A program made the position numbers and the translations under genes. The notes under the pieces are model-generated. The model was not told the origin of the DNA, made no database searches, and saw only the letters and a program-made list of their open reading frames with translations. Below, piece after piece: positions 56,149-63,806 of a stretch of 64,000 nucleotides of DNA. Source of the stretch: Candidatus Scalinduaceae bacterium (GTDB taxonomy: Bacteria; Planctomycetota; Brocadiia; Brocadiales; Scalinduaceae); the NCBI GenBank assembly GCA_046759445.1, contig JBHICG010000002.1, positions 1-64,000 of the forward strand, in the 5' to 3' direction. The number at the start of each line of letters is the position of its first letter. Position 1 is the stretch's first letter.

Positions 56149-57750
56149 CTAAATCATCAAGCTATTGTAATACTTTTTTCTGTATTTCTGAAGAATAAAG
56201 CTATCCTTGCATGCTGAGCAGTTCTTTTGTGGAAGGGGTGAAAATTTTATCCAATGGTTGGGTCTAGAAAAGAGGTCATGATCTATGTAAGTGACATCTC
56301 CCTTTAGCGCTCTATCAGGAAAGATGCGTTCTTTAAGAATTTCTCCTCCAATGAGTATTCCGGGAAGAACCGCTGCAAAAGGTATTGGAACTATCAAAGA
56401 AGCCTGTCCCTCAAAACTCATTTGGCCGCAATGTAAAGATACCCAATCTGTAAAACGTTCTCCTAAAGATGGTAATGGAAATCCTAACCTACATTGGACT
56501 TCTTGCATTTGAGATATATGCCAGTCCTTAAAATATCCGTTATTATTACGCAATGTTTTTACTTCTTCGTATGGGAGTCCTATGAAATTTGCTAAATCTC
56601 TGTCTGGATCCTGCTTATTGTTATTTTGCAAGCAAACATGACAAGCAGTTAGACCCATTTCTACCCTTTTTACATAGAACCCTCTTTCTGCCACACCAGC
56701 ATCAAATATAATTCTAGGAAGGTCCCACTGAATTGCTTGTCGAGTTTCTAGGTTGTCAACGGTTGAAATAAGTAAATCGAAAGAATCGTACTTAGTGATC
56801 TTTGAGAACTCTAAATAAGTCTTTTTATAAGCATCAATTTCAAGGTTCGGAAATTGATCAAATAGTTTTCGTATTAGGTGGACTTTTGGCACTTTTTCCT
56901 TTGCATCTTTTCTGATGGCATATATATAACGATTAAGATTTGACAAGGTCACTTCATCTGGGTCTACCAAAACTACTTTACCTTGTAACTCAGGCAGACA
57001 TACAAGGCAATATAGACAAGCACCCCCTCCAGCGCCAACTCCAACTGTAAATACTTGCCCGAGATCAATAGTTTTAGGTAAAGTAGGGTTATCAGCATTT
57101 AACTTAATTTGTTCGTACGAAAAGAGAGAAAAGTGTATTTCGTCTTCAAGTAAATTCATTCTGGGTAGTTCGCTTGATTTAATACCTAAAGTTGTACCTT
57201 TATATTCTAAGACTCTTTTGAATATTTCGCTTACCGCCCAACAAGCAGTTGCCATAGCTCCTATTGGATTGAAGTTCGATGAAAATTCTCTGTCGTCACT
57301 TTTAGCCACTAGATGTACAAACCAACCGTCAGATGAGATTGAGACCATGTTAGGATGCCTTATACCTGTTTTTCCTATACCTATTAGTACTAATGGCTCA
57401 CAAGATAAAGAAGGCAAAATTCGAAGATTAACCCCGGTGGATATAATAGAAGAAAAATGGGTAACGGCTTCAGTTAGACTAGTATTATTTACTAAAGGGA
57501 TAGGGGTTATAAGTCTAGAATTTCGTTCAAAGATTACATAAATTTCTGTAATAATTGGATGAAGTCGTAATAAAAGGTTAAGAACTGTAAAGAAAGTAAG
57601 TTGACCATTTGGATTAACAGAAGCTTCTTTTCCTAATATTACTATTATAGGCGCAGGCACCTTAGCCCATCTATGAACTTCTTGTGGGGAAGATGGCATG
57701 AGCTGCCTAAGAAGTGTCATCGTCCTTAAGCACTCCTGTTCAGATTTCAT
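56149..57750 (-). CDS. E1-like (ThiF/UBA) ubiquitin-like activating enzyme, BilD-like
   Basis: N-terminal degenerate adenylation-like domain; VGVGAGG, DPDEVTLSNLNRY, STVDN, CHVC and CSAC Zn pairs, candidate catalytic HCG. Confidence 0.88.
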   Translation of the reverse strand: MKSEQECLRTMTLLRQLMPSSPQEVHRWAKVPAPIIVILGKEASVNPNGQLTFFTVLNLLLRLHPIITEIYVIFERNSRLITPIPLVNNTSLTEAVTHFSSIISTGVNLRILPSLSCEPLVLIGIGKTGIRHPNMVSISSDGWFVHLVAKSDDREFSSNFNPIGAMATACWAVSEIFKRVLEYKGTTLGIKSSELPRMNLLEDEIHFSLFSYEQIKLNADNPTLPKTIDLGQVFTVGVGAGGGACLYCLVCLPELQGKVVLVDPDEVTLSNLNRYIYAIRKDAKEKVPKVHLIRKLFDQFPNLEIDAYKKTYLEFSKITKYDSFDLLISTVDNLETRQAIQWDLPRIIFDAGVAERGFYVKRVEMGLTACHVCLQNNNKQDPDRDLANFIGLPYEEVKTLRNNNGYFKDWHISQMQEVQCRLGFPLPSLGERFTDWVSLHCGQMSFEGQASLIVPIPFAAVLPGILIGGEILKERIFPDRALKGDVTYIDHDLFSRPNHWIKFSPLPQKNCSACKDSFILQKYRKKYYNSLMI

Positions 57751-58241
57751 ATTCGAATCTCCAAAGGTAAGATAATGAATCTTTTCTGGATTTCCTTAAC
57801 AGGCAATTTTCTCCACCATAGTTTTCCTTGGTACTCGTAAATATAACAATTCTTTGAAAGTTCCATTCCTGAAAGACAATAGTTCCATACAACTATTGAG
57901 ATGTAGCCAATATGAAAACTCACTGGATGCCTTTCATCACCTGTTGAATGTTCTACCTGGTTTGGGTGACTATGAACTTGCGCTAGTAAGGTTAAACTAT
58001 GCCTTGAAAGCTTAGTTACAAGTCTTATCAAATCGTTTTGCTCGAGAGAAACTCCCTCTCCCCACTCAGAACCCCCAACAAACATAGTGGTTATAATAGA
58101 AGATTCTTGTGCTCTTTTACCAGCCCAAAGTACAAGACCTTCTTTACCGATTTCCCCCTTTAGTTTTAAATACGCTTCTGTGCCAGATATTATCTTATGA
58201 GAGATATAGAATTTATTAGCTATGGCGGTAACTAACTTCAT
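57747..58241 (-). CDS. JAB/MPN+ metallopeptidase, BilC-like
   Basis: EGLVLWAG glutamate, QVHSHP...HSTGD, G.ISIVV. Confidence 0.9.
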   Translation of the reverse strand: MKLVTAIANKFYISHKIISGTEAYLKLKGEIGKEGLVLWAGKRAQESSIITTMFVGGSEWGEGVSLEQNDLIRLVTKLSRHSLTLLAQVHSHPNQVEHSTGDERHPVSFHIGYISIVVWNYCLSGMELSKNCYIYEYQGKLWWRKLPVKEIQKRFIILPLEIRI

Positions 58242-58666
58242 TGATAAGCTTTGTCCATTTCAACTTGAATATCTTCTAATACCTTAGATAATAAATATTT
58301 CTTTACATTCCAAGTATAGTTAGTATGTAGAATCTCATGAAACTCTCTAATGCCTGGAATACACAACTGTGGTGGATTACGCCCCAGCGCAGCCTGAAAG
58401 GCTGATCCTAGTTTTGGCCAGAATTGCTTCCCTTCTTGCCTAGTCTGTGGATCAACAAAAGTAAAAGCAGGAGCTCTTTGTGGGTATCCCTCGTAATATA
58501 AGCGTGCCATAAATTTTAAGGTTGGACTCTTTTTAGGATACATAAGTACATATACATATAACCCCTCTGGTGTTACCTTCCATCCGTGATAAATAAACAG
58601 GTTATTATGCGCTTGGAGACAATCTAATTGTTCTTGAATTTTGTGACTAATAACTTCACTTTCCAT
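58238..58666 (-). CDS. E2-like conjugating protein (CEHH type), BilB-like
   Basis: YPQRAPAFTFVDP (E2 YPxxxP motif) and LCIPGIREFHEILH. Confidence 0.82.
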   Translation of the reverse strand: MESEVISHKIQEQLDCLQAHNNLFIYHGWKVTPEGLYVYVLMYPKKSPTLKFMARLYYEGYPQRAPAFTFVDPQTRQEGKQFWPKLGSAFQAALGRNPPQLCIPGIREFHEILHTNYTWNVKKYLLSKVLEDIQVEMDKAYQ

Positions 58667-58920
58667 TAGATCACCACTGCACCAAGAGGGGTTAGAATAA
58701 GCGTAGCACCGTTTGGCACATTTGATTCGCCGATAGTATCATCCTCAGACAGGGGATTACCATTGAATATTAAACGATAGTTGTCCGCTTGTGACGGATC
58801 GATCCCCAACTTAGCCATAGTAGATACTTTCAAAGCTCGAATAGGTTGGTTCGTATTTACCTCAACTTCTAAAGGCTGTTCTGTTGCCGCAGATTCAATT
58901 GTTAGTATAAGTTTTTCCAT
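58666..58920 (-). CDS. Ubiquitin-like beta-grasp protein, BilA-like
   Basis: LEVEVN.NQPIRALK..YRLIFNGNPLSEDDTIGESNVPNGATLIL parallels ubiquitin [29 protein letters not shown]; GAGG RBS. Confidence 0.88.
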   Translation of the reverse strand: MEKLILTIESAATEQPLEVEVNTNQPIRALKVSTMAKLGIDPSQADNYRLIFNGNPLSEDDTIGESNVPNGATLILTPLGAVVI

Positions 58921-58998
58921 TGCATTTCCTCCTATTTAACTTAAATTAAAAATTTTTAATTTTTCATTAATCACGAGATAGAACTTGAAAATATAGTA

Positions 58999-59124: not shown

Positions 59125-59472
59125 ATGGAAGACCAACTTGCCAAACGAATTGGACATCGCATAAAGAGCAAAAGAATTGAACGCAATATAAATCAAAACA
59201 AATTGGCTGAGAAGGTAGGTATAAGTCCCGCAGCAATAAACCAGTTTGAGAAAGGAGAAAAGAAACCATCGTCCGATGTACTCACTAGGATCGCAAAAGA
59301 ATTAAGTGTCTCCACTGACAGTCTTCTTACTGAAAAGGGGGATGAAATTTTCGTAGATGAAGAGGTTAAAATAGCTTTTAGAGCATTCAAAAAGTTGGAA
59401 AAAGGGGATAGAGACATAATCGTAAAGAATATACAATTTCTTAAAGAACAAGCGAAAAGAAAAGGAAAATGA
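59125..59472 (+). CDS. XRE-family HTH repressor, CapH-like
   Basis: QNKLAEKVGISPAAINQFEKGEKKPS HTH; C-terminal AFRAFKKL helix; AAGGAG RBS. Confidence 0.88.
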   Translation: MEDQLAKRIGHRIKSKRIERNINQNKLAEKVGISPAAINQFEKGEKKPSSDVLTRIAKELSVSTDSLLTEKGDEIFVDEEVKIAFRAFKKLEKGDRDIIVKNIQFLKEQAKRKGK

Positions 59473-60248
59473 ACATAGCAAAACTTTACGCAAAAGATCT
59501 TCTCATAGAATTTGAGAACTTATCTTTACCTATAAATCCAAAGAAAATTGCTGAGGCTAAAGGGATTATAATTAAAGAAGATGATCTAGAAGGCTTTAGT
59601 GGTATGTTGCTTAAGGTAGGCAAAAGAACTCTTATTAGCGTTAAAAGAAGCATAAGAGAAAGAGGGAAAAAGAGATTCACACTAGCCCATGAACTAGGGC
59701 ATTATCTTTTGACTAAACACTTAACACCTTCAGATATCTCATTTGAATGTACTGATGAAGACATACATCATTTCGGAGAAAAAGATAATAAAGAGTCAGA
59801 CGTGAATGCATTTGCAGCAGAGTTACTTATGCCAGAAGAATTTTTCAGAGAAAGAATTAGGTTAAGCGATCTTACTTATGAACTGATAGATAGTCTTACA
59901 AAAGATTTTGATACCACACTTACGGCTACTGGTAGAAGATTTGTGGAACTTAGTTCTTCATATGCATTAGTTTGTTCTCAAAATTCTAAAATAAAGTGGT
60001 TCCTTAAGGGAGAAGATTTTCCTTATTATTTGTACTCTTCAGGTACCGTAAGCGAATCTTCGGTTGCCATAGATTTTTACTAGAGAAAAAAATTACCTAC
60101 TTGTTTTGAATTGGTACCTGCAAACGCTTGGATTGATGACAACAGAATAGAGGACATGGAAATCTTGGAAATGGCTATACCACTTCCATACTATAATCAG
60201 GTTTTAAGTTTTTTAAGCATTGATAATTCCAATGAAGATAATGACTAG
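59469..60248 (+). pseudogene. ImmA/IrrE-family metallopeptidase (CapP-like) with in-frame TAG at 60081-60083
   Basis: RFTLAHELGH, E.DVNAFAAELLMP; frame stays open for 54 codons after the TAG (..VPANAWIDD..EMAIPLPYYNQVLSFL..) to TAG 60246-60248. Confidence 0.8.
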
Positions 60249-60309
60249 TAGACCCAAGTCAGACTTCTACTGATAAATTGCCTAAAATCGGCCAATTAAG
60301 CATAATACA

Positions 60310-60512: not shown

Positions 60513-61964
60513 ATGTCTATCCTTAACAAAGCAGAAATAGTAAATATTAAAAATGAAGATGATTGGATGGATGTTTTGTCTTCATGCGAAGGCCATTTAT
60601 CAATAAAAGACTACCCCAAGATATCTGAATATTTATCGAATAATATCAAGACAGTATTTATTGAAAAAGATTATATTGATAAAGATTTTCGAGATACATT
60701 TTATAACTTCTATTCAAAAAAATTCGCAGATTACCCCAACAAGGCTATTAGACTTCACTTTTTTACTACCCTTATTAGCAACGATGACATTTATGATTTA
60801 GACAAGTATCAAAACCATTATGTTGGTTTTATAGTTATAAGGCCTACAAGAATTAACACAATAGGTAGAACTATTTTAGATCCTTCTAAAATATCAAAAG
60901 CAGGCGGATATATTTGCTCTACAGATTATAAAGTCCATATTCTTGGTGCAGAATTAAATGTTAATGGGTTTCCTTACATAAGCCAAGACACAGACGTTAC
61001 TGTTTGTGCTCATGCCGCTTGTTGGATGGTTTTTAGATATTTCAGTGAAAGATATCCAACTTATGCAGAGATTTTACCGTTTAAGATTTCCCAATTAACA
61101 GAAAACCTTTCTTATGGCAGACTTGTTCCATCAAAGGGGTTATACCTTTCTCAAGTTGCAGAAATATTTTCAAAGTTCGGATTTTATCCTGAAATTTATA
61201 TTAAAGCTCAGTATCAAGATAATTTTGACAGGCTACTTTATTACTATATTGAATCGGGTTTGCCAGTAGTTGCTGGACTTAGCAGACATAATCATGCAAT
61301 AACAATCTTGGGCCATCTTTCTAATTATGAAAGATCTGTTTCAAATAACAGTGTAGAATATGTTGATGGTCTTATAATTAATGATAATAATCATCTCCCT
61401 TACCAAAAACTTTTAAGAAGTAATCTTAAAAAAGAAGGTTACTGTTCAAAGTATCACTTTGAAGATATAGATAGCTTTATCGTTCCCCTGTATGAAAAAA
61501 TTTACTTTTCTGCCGAATATGTTGATGCTATGGCGGAAGCTTTGTTAGATGACACACATTTTGGTATTAACGCTTTGTCTCAGCTTGTAAAGAAAAACAA
61601 CATTATAAAAAGAATATTTCTTACATCTTCTAAGTCCTATAAAATACAAAGAAGAAAACAAAATTTACCTTTTAATCTGTCATCGACATACTGTGGAATG
61701 AATATGCCAAAGTTTATTTGGGTATGTGAATTATCCACCTCAGAATTTTACTCAAAAGGTGAAATTATAGGTGAAATTATTTTTGATGCTACAGCAAACC
61801 ATATTGATACATTCTGTTTTTTGGTTATACATTACCCAGACTTTATAGTATTTAATGATAGAAATTATTTGACTTATAATCCAGAAAGGTTTATAAAGGG
61901 CACACTTAAAACAAAAGATTTGCTATCATATCAATTATATAAAAATAATCTAAAGGAGATATGA
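60513..61964 (+). CDS. Papain-fold (C39-like) cysteine protease domain protein
   Basis: PYISQDTDVTVCAHAACW (Gln..Cys), ESGLPVV, HAITILGH (His), IINDNN. Confidence 0.7.
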   Translation: MSILNKAEIVNIKNEDDWMDVLSSCEGHLSIKDYPKISEYLSNNIKTVFIEKDYIDKDFRDTFYNFYSKKFADYPNKAIRLHFFTTLISNDDIYDLDKYQNHYVGFIVIRPTRINTIGRTILDPSKISKAGGYICSTDYKVHILGAELNVNGFPYISQDTDVTVCAHAACWMVFRYFSERYPTYAEILPFKISQLTENLSYGRLVPSKGLYLSQVAEIFSKFGFYPEIYIKAQYQDNFDRLLYYYIESGLPVVAGLSRHNHAITILGHLSNYERSVSNNSVEYVDGLIINDNNHLPYQKLLRSNLKKEGYCSKYHFEDIDSFIVPLYEKIYFSAEYVDAMAEALLDDTHFGINALSQLVKKNNIIKRIFLTSSKSYKIQRRKQNLPFNLSSTYCGMNMPKFIWVCELSTSEFYSKGEIIGEIIFDATANHIDTFCFLVIHYPDFIVFNDRNYLTYNPERFIKGTLKTKDLLSYQLYKNNLKEI

Positions 61965-63425: not shown

Positions 63426-63806
63426 CTATAACTGTTTTTTTAACCATTTTAGAACCTCTTTGCCTTTTTCAAATATTACCTTTGTTTTCTCTTTATCATA
63501 GTCTTTTAGCATCTTCTGGAGGTCGTCTGGATAATATGGGAAGATTCTCATCTTATTCAGGGCAGAAATAGTATCAGAAAATTCTTCAGGAAGCTTTAAG
63601 TGAACTTTTTCAATGAGATACGGTAGATTGTTTGTGTTTAAGGGTATTGCGTTGAATTTCTTCTGATAAAGCCCTTTAAGGGCTTTTTCAATGGAAAGAT
63701 GGCACAGAAATACGGCATAAAAATACCTTTCGGCCTTAAGCATATACTCGGCAGTATCCATATCGTAATCAGCCTGACTCAGCCATTCTTCAGGTTTTTT
63801 TGCCAT
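63426..63806 (-). CDS. HEPN domain protein
   Basis: EWLSQADYDMDTA..YAVFLCHLSIEKALKG..YPD; AGGAG RBS. Confidence 0.88.
   Translation of the reverse strand: MAKKPEEWLSQADYDMDTAEYMLKAERYFYAVFLCHLSIEKALKGLYQKKFNAIPLNTNNLPYLIEKVHLKLPEEFSDTISALNKMRIFPYYPDDLQKMLKDYDKEKTKVIFEKGKEVLKWLKKQL

Follow-up and report, generated by a model that had tools for sequence, protein, structure and literature searches.

A divergent Type II Bil-like operon of a Candidatus Scalinduaceae bacterium, in which a conserved Ile/Val takes the place of the reactive glycine at the end of the ubiquitin-like protein

Can a ubiquitin-like protein (Ubl) be activated and conjugated through a C-terminal residue other than glycine? 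The question is raised by a locus of a Candidatus Scalinduaceae bacterium (Planctomycetota; assembly GCA_046759445.1), found within positions 1 to 64,000 of the forward strand of contig JBHICG010000002.1 (this whole stretch of 64,000 nucleotides being hereafter referred to as "the window"), where a Ubl gene whose product ends in isoleucine is followed by genes for a CEHH-type E2, a JAB peptidase and a multidomain E1, the four of them appearing to constitute a divergent Type II Bil-like operon. Ubl conjugation is taken in the literature to require a C-terminal glycine, and bulkier residues are reported to kill the systems that have been tested. The answer that we favor, with a probability of about 0.55, is that the final isoleucine (Ile84) would itself be the mature, activated C-terminus, that the JAB peptidase would remove extensions beyond this position and also reverse conjugation, and that the E1-E2 relay would carry an Ile/Val acyl group.

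The Ubl gene (BilA-like; 58666..58920, minus strand) encodes 84 amino acids followed by a TAA stop codon, and its assignment draws on the open reading frame (ORF), a Pfam match, an AlphaFold2 (AF2) model and a Foldseek search. An original prediction, made from the bare sequence, had held that this protein ends with neither a terminal glycine nor a di-glycine, which is borne out both by the translation of the 84-codon ORF, the C-terminus of which reads ...NGATLILTPLGAVVI, and by the minus-strand DNA (GGT GCA GTG GTG ATC TAA TGG), with ...TLILTPLGAVVI standing immediately before the TAA. The eight residues beyond the beta5 anchor TLIL (the tail, TPLGAVVI) are encoded at 58669..58692 on the minus strand and include Gly80 (codon GGT, 58681..58683), which is the sole glycine among the last 13 residues of the protein, and the proposed activated residue, Ile84 (codon ATC, 58669..58671). 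Against the Pfam ubiquitin family (PF00240), the Ubl scores 32.5 bits, which is above the gathering threshold of 25.4; its residues 13-76 align to residues 9-69 of ubiquitin in HMMER, and continuing that alignment ungapped puts Gly80 at ubiquitin position 73 and pairs Val82-Val83 with Gly75-Gly76, so that Ile84 extends past the end of ubiquitin by one residue, thereby reproducing the arrangement that the original prediction had put forward. The AF2 model, which was based on an 81-sequence alignment, is a beta-grasp fold with a predicted local distance difference test (pLDDT) value of 89.8, in which beta5 comprises residues 73-78 and residues 79-84 are unstructured (the last block, 81-84, having a mean pLDDT of 51). 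At least 500 PDB matches to this model were found by Foldseek at E <= 0.001, the top listed ones being ubiquitin, NEDD8, ISG15, SUMO and BilA chains, with a TMq of 0.83 against BilA 8tyx_A. Unlike ubiquitin, NEDD8, SUMO, ISG15, Atg8, SAMP and BubA, however, the window Ubl appears to be devoid of a C-terminal glycine at the activated position, as there is no glycine at or beyond the position homologous to the reactive one.

The remaining operon genes follow in the order E2, JAB and E1, all on the minus strand, with the four genes extending from 58920 down to 56149. The E2 (BilB-like, CEHH type; 58238..58666; 142 amino acids) scores 27.1 bits against Pfam Metal_CEHH (cutoff 25) and matches the PDB BilB chain 8tyz_C with an E value of 0.0016, the region of Cys138 being aligned, so that Cys102, Glu108, His110 and His114 correspond to BilB C138/E144/H146/H151. 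The JAB/JAMM peptidase (BilC-like; 57747..58241; 164 amino acids; Glu34, His90, His92, Ser99, Asp102) is matched by the PADLOC BilC model at 9.3e-14 and by Pfam Prok-JAB at 18.4 bits, which is under the cutoff of 25, while its match to PDB BilC 8tyx_B (1.4e-15) pairs E34 with Glu33 and H90/H92/S99/D102 with the HSHP...HSTTD motif containing D106. The E1 (BilD-like; 56149..57750; 533 amino acids) scores 53.1 bits against Pfam ThiF and is matched by PADLOC BilD at 1.1e-18; its phmmer match to E. aridi BilD (8tyz_A; 6.8e-24 over residues 90-530) places the predicted Arg274 on R246, the predicted catalytic Cys441 on C417 and the predicted zinc ligands Cys370/373/511/514 on C340/C343/C491/C493. In a 27-sequence E1 alignment, R274, C370, C373, C441, C511 and C514 are invariant, and Asp332 is at least 90% conserved. 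Among solved structures, the Type II Bil proteins of Ensifer aridi come closest to these three enzymes, and every catalytic residue that was checked in the latter is present.

The same arrangement recurs elsewhere. Of ten related loci, nine lie on metagenome contigs and one belongs to a named genome; L018, which had a 23-residue match only, was excluded, and in all of the remaining nine the Ubl gene is directly followed by the E2 gene, and the order Ubl-E2-JAB-E1 is held as far as the contigs extend, with a JAB gene in eight (the contig of L015 ends earlier) and an E1 gene in seven (that of L011 also ends earlier). The motif C-x5-E-x-H-x3-5-H is found in 10/10 E2s (window plus nine loci), the full JAMM motif in the window JAB and the seven complete JABs of the loci (the L011 JAB ends with its contig inside the motif), and the cysteine motif H-C-[GS]-[QE] in 6/6 full-length E1s. 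One of these loci comes from an archaeal (Nitrosotenuis) metagenome-assembled genome, and its Ubl, ending ...RIAPLQTQVI, has no glycine in the tail.

How, then, does the window system relate to the Type II BilABCD systems (CEHH/6C), as known from Ensifer aridi TW10? The likeness extends to the order Ubl-E2-deubiquitinase-E1, the CEHH E2, the CapH/CapP-like neighbors described below, a single beta-grasp Ubl with an eight-residue tail past the TLxL strand and, judging by the alignments, a JAMM peptidase bearing the Glu, HxH and Asp of the active site and an E1 with an inserted catalytic Cys and four zinc cysteines. The E1, however, is distant from that of E. aridi (see the phmmer match above) and only ~25% identical to rhizobial BilD (tblastn), with a nucleotide-binding loop of GAGGG versus GAI(A/G)H in Type II BilD; moreover, the window branch is known from metagenomes, the source names of other members including Acidobacteriota and Nitrososphaerota, whereas the published Type II Bil systems are from Rhizobiaceae. 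Since the glycine described as universal in BilA is missing here, while the gene order, the CEHH E2, the JAMM peptidase and the E1 conform to the type, the window system is best described as related to Type II Bil, but as a divergent branch of it instead of a plain member.

The evidence bearing most directly on the end of the Ubl comes from its homologues. With first the Ubl protein and then a profile built from 11 sequences as the query, 92 relatives were collected, of which one 49-amino-acid fragment was excluded, leaving 91 aligned sequences (7 distant ones of the GGGG type and 84 core homologues); a representative-sequence search was dominated by polyubiquitins, seven single-domain relatives and one three-domain protein being kept from its best 150 matches. 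With tail positions counted from the strand-5 anchor (TLxL; query T73-L76), tail position 8, occupied by Ile84 in the query, is Ile in 58, Val in 25 and Lys in one of the 84 core homologues, and the lone lysine is found in a protein (P0151) where a one-residue deletion shifts the isoleucine to position 7, so that the conserved terminal position is Ile/Val in 84/84 when this deletion is allowed for, and the Ubl end is therefore no chance feature. The terminal dipeptides are VI (34), KI (25), VV (21) and KV (4), and the tail is exactly eight residues long in 71/84. At tail position 4, the one of Gly80, the same homologues have G (23), E (23), D (15), K (11), S (6), A (2), Q (2), P (1) or R (1); as many as 59 of the 84 are without any glycine at tail positions 1-8, and the second-closest homologue (P0002, 82% identical), which ends ...TPLAAEVI, has alanine at the Gly80 position. 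A conserved glycine followed by variable tails, which the original prediction had named as a possible refutation, is the opposite of what the comparison gave, and Gly80 is an unconserved tail residue and probably neither a cleavage nor an activation site.

Variability is found beyond the Ile/Val instead. The remaining 13 core homologues carry 2-9 further residues (RE, RE, RK, RR, QYI, QCMY, KKHES, TSC, GM, GG, GG, KHHG and WECHGSRNY), and such extensions diverge even between near relatives: two proteins that are 95% identical end ...VVVRE and ...VVVKG, and two that are 92% identical end ...AEVINN and ...AEVI. For Type II BilA, a glycine described as "universally-conserved", with as many as nine residues after it that are removed by BilC, is reported (10.1101/2023.09.26.559546). 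The core pattern of the window branch, with its 0-9 unconserved residues beyond the conserved position, is this very pattern of a conserved residue plus a short unconserved tail, except that Ile/Val replaces the glycine and that the tail often contains no glycine at all. A separate observation concerns P0082, a protein of 240 amino acids with three tandem Ubl domains of the Ile/Val branch, whose internal junctions (...ERRDVMVKLTF...) leave no space for a full tail and in which the conserved end (...ERREVVKI) is present on the last domain only, followed by WTP.

Whether Ile84 is also the positional counterpart of the reactive glycine of BilA was judged from local alignments that were carried ungapped to the protein ends. 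E. aridi BilA is reported to be cut by BilC between Gly97 and Ala98, and only the form ending in Gly97 is conjugated (10.1101/2023.09.26.559546). The canonical BilA of two rhizobial plasmids, at 98 amino acids equal in length to the E. aridi protein, ends ...TLFLSLKAGVAG-A, and as BLASTP pairs query T77 with S90 of the 98-amino-acid NGR234 BilA (...TLFLSLKAGVAGA), which leaves seven query and eight BilA residues, Ile84 falls on Gly97, with Ala98 being extra. The same result is obtained with the GGGG-type P0232 (...TLLLAPREGGGG-R), the P79 of which pairs with query P78 and thus brings Ile84 onto its last glycine, while a Gly-type relative from the window's own phylum ends LTL-SLGAGAGG, with glycine at tail position 8. 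Gly80, on the other hand, is situated two residues past beta5 in the AF2 model and four short of the BilA Gly97 position, and a tail cut back to it would be far shorter than those in the solved BilA complexes.

A difference that may be related to this one is seen in the E1. Its nucleotide-binding loop, GVGAGGGA (residues 237-244; 57019..57042, minus strand), conforms to GxGAGGG, which is found in 8/8 E1s of the window and the loci and in 29/34 database homologues, whereas Ile or Val occupies the fifth loop position in each of the six Gly-type E1s that were compared (GLGAIAHG in E. aridi; GLGAIGHG in both S. fredii NGR234 and M. loti; GVGSIGSA in Natrinema; and GVGAVANS and GLGAIGSA in the genomes G093 and G255, respectively). 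This position is Ile/Leu in ThiF, MoeB and the eukaryotic E1s, too. It is attractive to infer a complementary exchange, in which the Ubl glycine would have become Ile/Val while the Ile/Val of the loop became glycine; a model of the Type I Bil system is reported to place the Ubl's terminal glycine at the E1 nucleotide-binding loop (Hör et al., 10.1101/2023.09.04.556158). The branch also has a second E1 difference, at about residues 345-360 of the window protein, where LP[RK] is followed by (L/F)-D-A-[AGT]-[VIA] and the rhizobial Gly-type BilD has A-N-A-W-T, i.e., a tryptophan near the adenylation core is lost in the Ile/Val branch.

The invariant Ile/Val at the Gly97 position and the variable extensions would fit activation at a hydrophobic, non-glycine end, which was one of the two options offered by the original prediction. 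The JAB peptidase would remove the short variable extension beyond the Ile/Val where there is one, the window Ubl presumably needing no processing; the E1 would adenylate the Ile/Val carboxylate, for the side chain of which the glycine at the fifth loop position (a position usually taken by Ile, Val or Leu) may make room; the Ubl would then move as a thioester from E1 Cys441 to E2 Cys102 and be joined to target lysines, an attachment that the JAB peptidase could reverse. The comparison of sequences bears out the pattern of conservation, the matching positions, the operon context and the catalytic residues; that Ile/Val is adenylated, passed on as a thioester and cut behind by the JAB, and that the loop glycine plays a part, we infer from these. 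The broader formulation, that an E1-E2 cascade widespread in bacteria and archaea adenylates, thioesterifies and conjugates a beta-branched Ile/Val C-terminus in place of glycine, being enabled to do so by the E1 loop glycine (GxGAGGG), and that its JAMM peptidase cleaves after Ile/Val, is one on which we would place roughly even odds.

There is, admittedly, much that weighs against such a proposal. To our knowledge, every characterized system uses glycine, or Gly/Ala in the case of the cyclic oligonucleotide-based antiphage signaling system (CBASS), and we know of no E1 that activates a beta-branched C-terminus, which also counts in favor of a non-conjugating end (see below). The Type I Bil system (Collimonas sp. 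OK412) resembles the window system in its four genes for a Ubl, an E2, a JAB and an E1, and the PADLOC BilC and BilD models match the window proteins, although its Ubl is described as having two beta-grasp domains, unlike that of the window; its terminal glycine is reported to be fully conserved, "an obligatory glycine", and the substitution G163L to abolish defense (Hör et al., 10.1101/2023.09.04.556158). Bub systems likewise expose a glycine. Type II CBASS Cap2/Cap3, in which a JAB isopeptidase is described as accompanying a bacterial E1/E2 cascade, as is proposed here, though with a nucleotidyltransferase (CD-NTase) and not a beta-grasp protein as its substrate, is the only characterized case where a non-glycine activated residue is allowed, alanine occurring naturally; however, Ser, Val, Arg and Trp substitutions are reported to abolish conjugation, and in E. 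coli CBASS a G-to-V change abolished both thioester formation and conjugation (PMC10097602; 10.1101/2022.03.31.486616). A parallel for the adenylation of a non-glycine C-terminal carboxylate (Asn) by an E1/ThiF fold is offered by MccB acting on MccA, although there, unlike in the window system, the substrate is a heptapeptide and neither an E2, nor a thioester relay, nor protein conjugation is described, and MccB is said to be stimulated only by A, G, S and T when these replace the native Asn (10.1101/2024.05.13.593989).

Some of the points telling against Ile84 come from our own data. Glycine is present inside 5 of the 13 extensions and is their final residue in 3 (GG, GG and KHHG), the Ubl of the locus L016 ends VVVKG, and a downstream glycine could be the real end in these Gly-bearing extended proteins. 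The alignment of the tail is an anchored, ungapped, sequence-based one, in a region where the pLDDT is low. As for the E1 loop, what is observed is one correlation at the level of the clade, among proteins that are ~25% identical, and it may reflect one inherited event. The five tail motifs that were sought in two supplementary files of PMC11601603 were not found there, and no report of an Ile/Val-ended Ubl in Bil-type operons was encountered in the literature searched, with subscription-only papers and the published BilA sequences falling outside its scope.

Several other explanations of the hydrophobic end have to be weighed against its activation. It might be that the Ubl is not conjugated via its C-terminus at all and that the end is a binding motif (e.g., for the JAB, the E1 or a target) in a non-covalent process or one relying on other chemistry, a possibility that we take seriously yet consider unlikely. 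The loss of conjugation upon Val substitution that is reported for CBASS speaks in its favor, as does the existence of Hub1, a eukaryotic Ubl that has no Gly-Gly end and acts non-covalently. It sits poorly, however, with the retention of E1 Arg274, Cys441 and the zinc cysteines, of the E2 CEHH cysteine and of the JAMM motif across bacteria and archaea, which argues for selection on the full cascade, as well as with the conserved Ile/Val being exactly at the reactive position and being followed, where anything follows, by variable extensions that resemble removable propeptides. The other option of the original prediction, which was ordinary BilA maturation with the JAB cutting after Gly80, AVVI being removed and the E1 activating Gly80, found no support in the homologues and appears improbable to us. 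Type II BilA does have its conserved glycine with a removable stretch of up to nine residues, and the window Ubl and 22 other homologues do have a glycine at tail position 4; nevertheless, the frequency of that glycine (23/84), its replacement by alanine in P0002, its absence along with any other tail glycine in most core homologues and its location relative to beta5 and the Gly97 position all speak against such a cut, and a propeptide cut off there would have a constant length and a conserved sequence (A-x-V-[IV]), in contrast to the variable tails of the canonical proteins.

The tail might also be an artefact, either of a sequencing or assembly error or of recoding that hides a glycine, or its codons might be kept solely for the sake of the E2 ribosome-binding site, all of which we deem highly improbable. 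Of four sequencing runs compared with the window, one (X1) is possibly the source of the window DNA and hence not independent, but an RNA-library contig originating from another study (X3) has 0 differences over 58492-58690, its tail thus being identical, and a related-strain DNA contig (X4) has 43 substitutions over 57889-58827, with no insertions or deletions in any of the four runs; the error that the original prediction had conceded as a way of hiding a Gly end is thereby contradicted, and the same kind of end is, furthermore, seen in 84 homologues from many sources. Between 56100 and 59500 of the window, the genes for the E1, the JAB, the E2 and the regulators are matched at no less than 99% by contigs of a DNase-treated metatranscriptome that comes from another study, with the X3 coverage leaving out 56328-56669 as well as 58722-58949, where most of the Ubl gene lies, and such RNA-library contigs hint that the operon is transcribed in nature. 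In favor of the proposal that the tail codons serve as the E2 ribosome-binding site, the stop codon of the Ubl does share bases with the E2 start (TAATG) and GGTGA is found 4 nucleotides upstream of the E2 ATG; it does not hold as the cause of tail conservation, however, for in 9/9 loci the stop codon of the Ubl gene does not overlap the start of the E2 gene as called mechanically (gaps of 3-25 nucleotides, at least 12 in six of the loci), yet the x-V-I/V end is retained in all nine, which points to conservation at the protein level.

As for the distribution of the operon, using the single window E1 as a query against genome contigs gave 72 pattern matches and 0 confirmed relatives, and no close E1 relative was found in 40 related genomes, a full match being seen only in the window genome itself among the 41, where the other matches were ThiF/MoeB-sized frames with E values of at least 8e-6. 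In a sample of the phylum, 2/400 other genomes have distant systems of the Gly type, and the Bil-like operon is, accordingly, sporadic in the window's relatives. A distant Bil-like operon from the same phylum (genome G255, locus L022, 700-4420, minus strand) has an E1 of 796 amino acids, whose long C-terminal extension appears rich in proline at first and hydrophobic (membrane-like) further on, and a Ubl of 124 amino acids in which ...AFG is followed by 18 residues overlapping the E2 gene.

Divergently from the operon, on the plus strand, there are genes for a helix-turn-helix regulator (CapH-like; 59125..59472; Pfam HTH_3, 8.2e-16) and a Peptidase_M78/IrrE-like metallopeptidase with an HELGH motif (CapP-like; 59469..60083; Pfam PF06114, 3.6e-14), and CapH/CapP are stated to adjoin 25/162 Type II Bil operons (Chambers et al., 10.1101/2023.09.26.559546). 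The CapP-like ORF is terminated by an in-frame TAG (60081-60083), after which the frame stays open for 54 more codons (window 59469-60251; ...VAIDFY*RKKLPTCFELVPANAWIDD...). The regulator gene could have been interrupted by a nonsense mutation or could be short by nature. Adjoining the regulators is an ORF of 483 amino acids (60513-61964, plus strand) that has no Pfam match at E <= 0.01 and, with the Bil operon on one side and a HEPN-domain gene (63426-63806) on the other, may be another defense-island gene.

What the window operon represents, then, is a whole natural branch that has an apparently intact E1, E2 and JAB, yet an invariant Ile/Val at the glycine position. If its enzymes do work with a hindered acyl group, this would amount to an E1/E2/JAMM specificity of a new kind; if they do not, a cascade that looks complete operates with no conjugation through the C-terminus. 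In the former case, Gly-specific E1s and deubiquitinases, along with those that phages may encode, would be orthogonal to an Ile/Val tag. Either outcome bears on how the E1 active site selects its substrate, on how defense systems are insulated from other Ubl pathways and Gly-specific deubiquitinases and on whether an orthogonal protein-ligation tool would be feasible.

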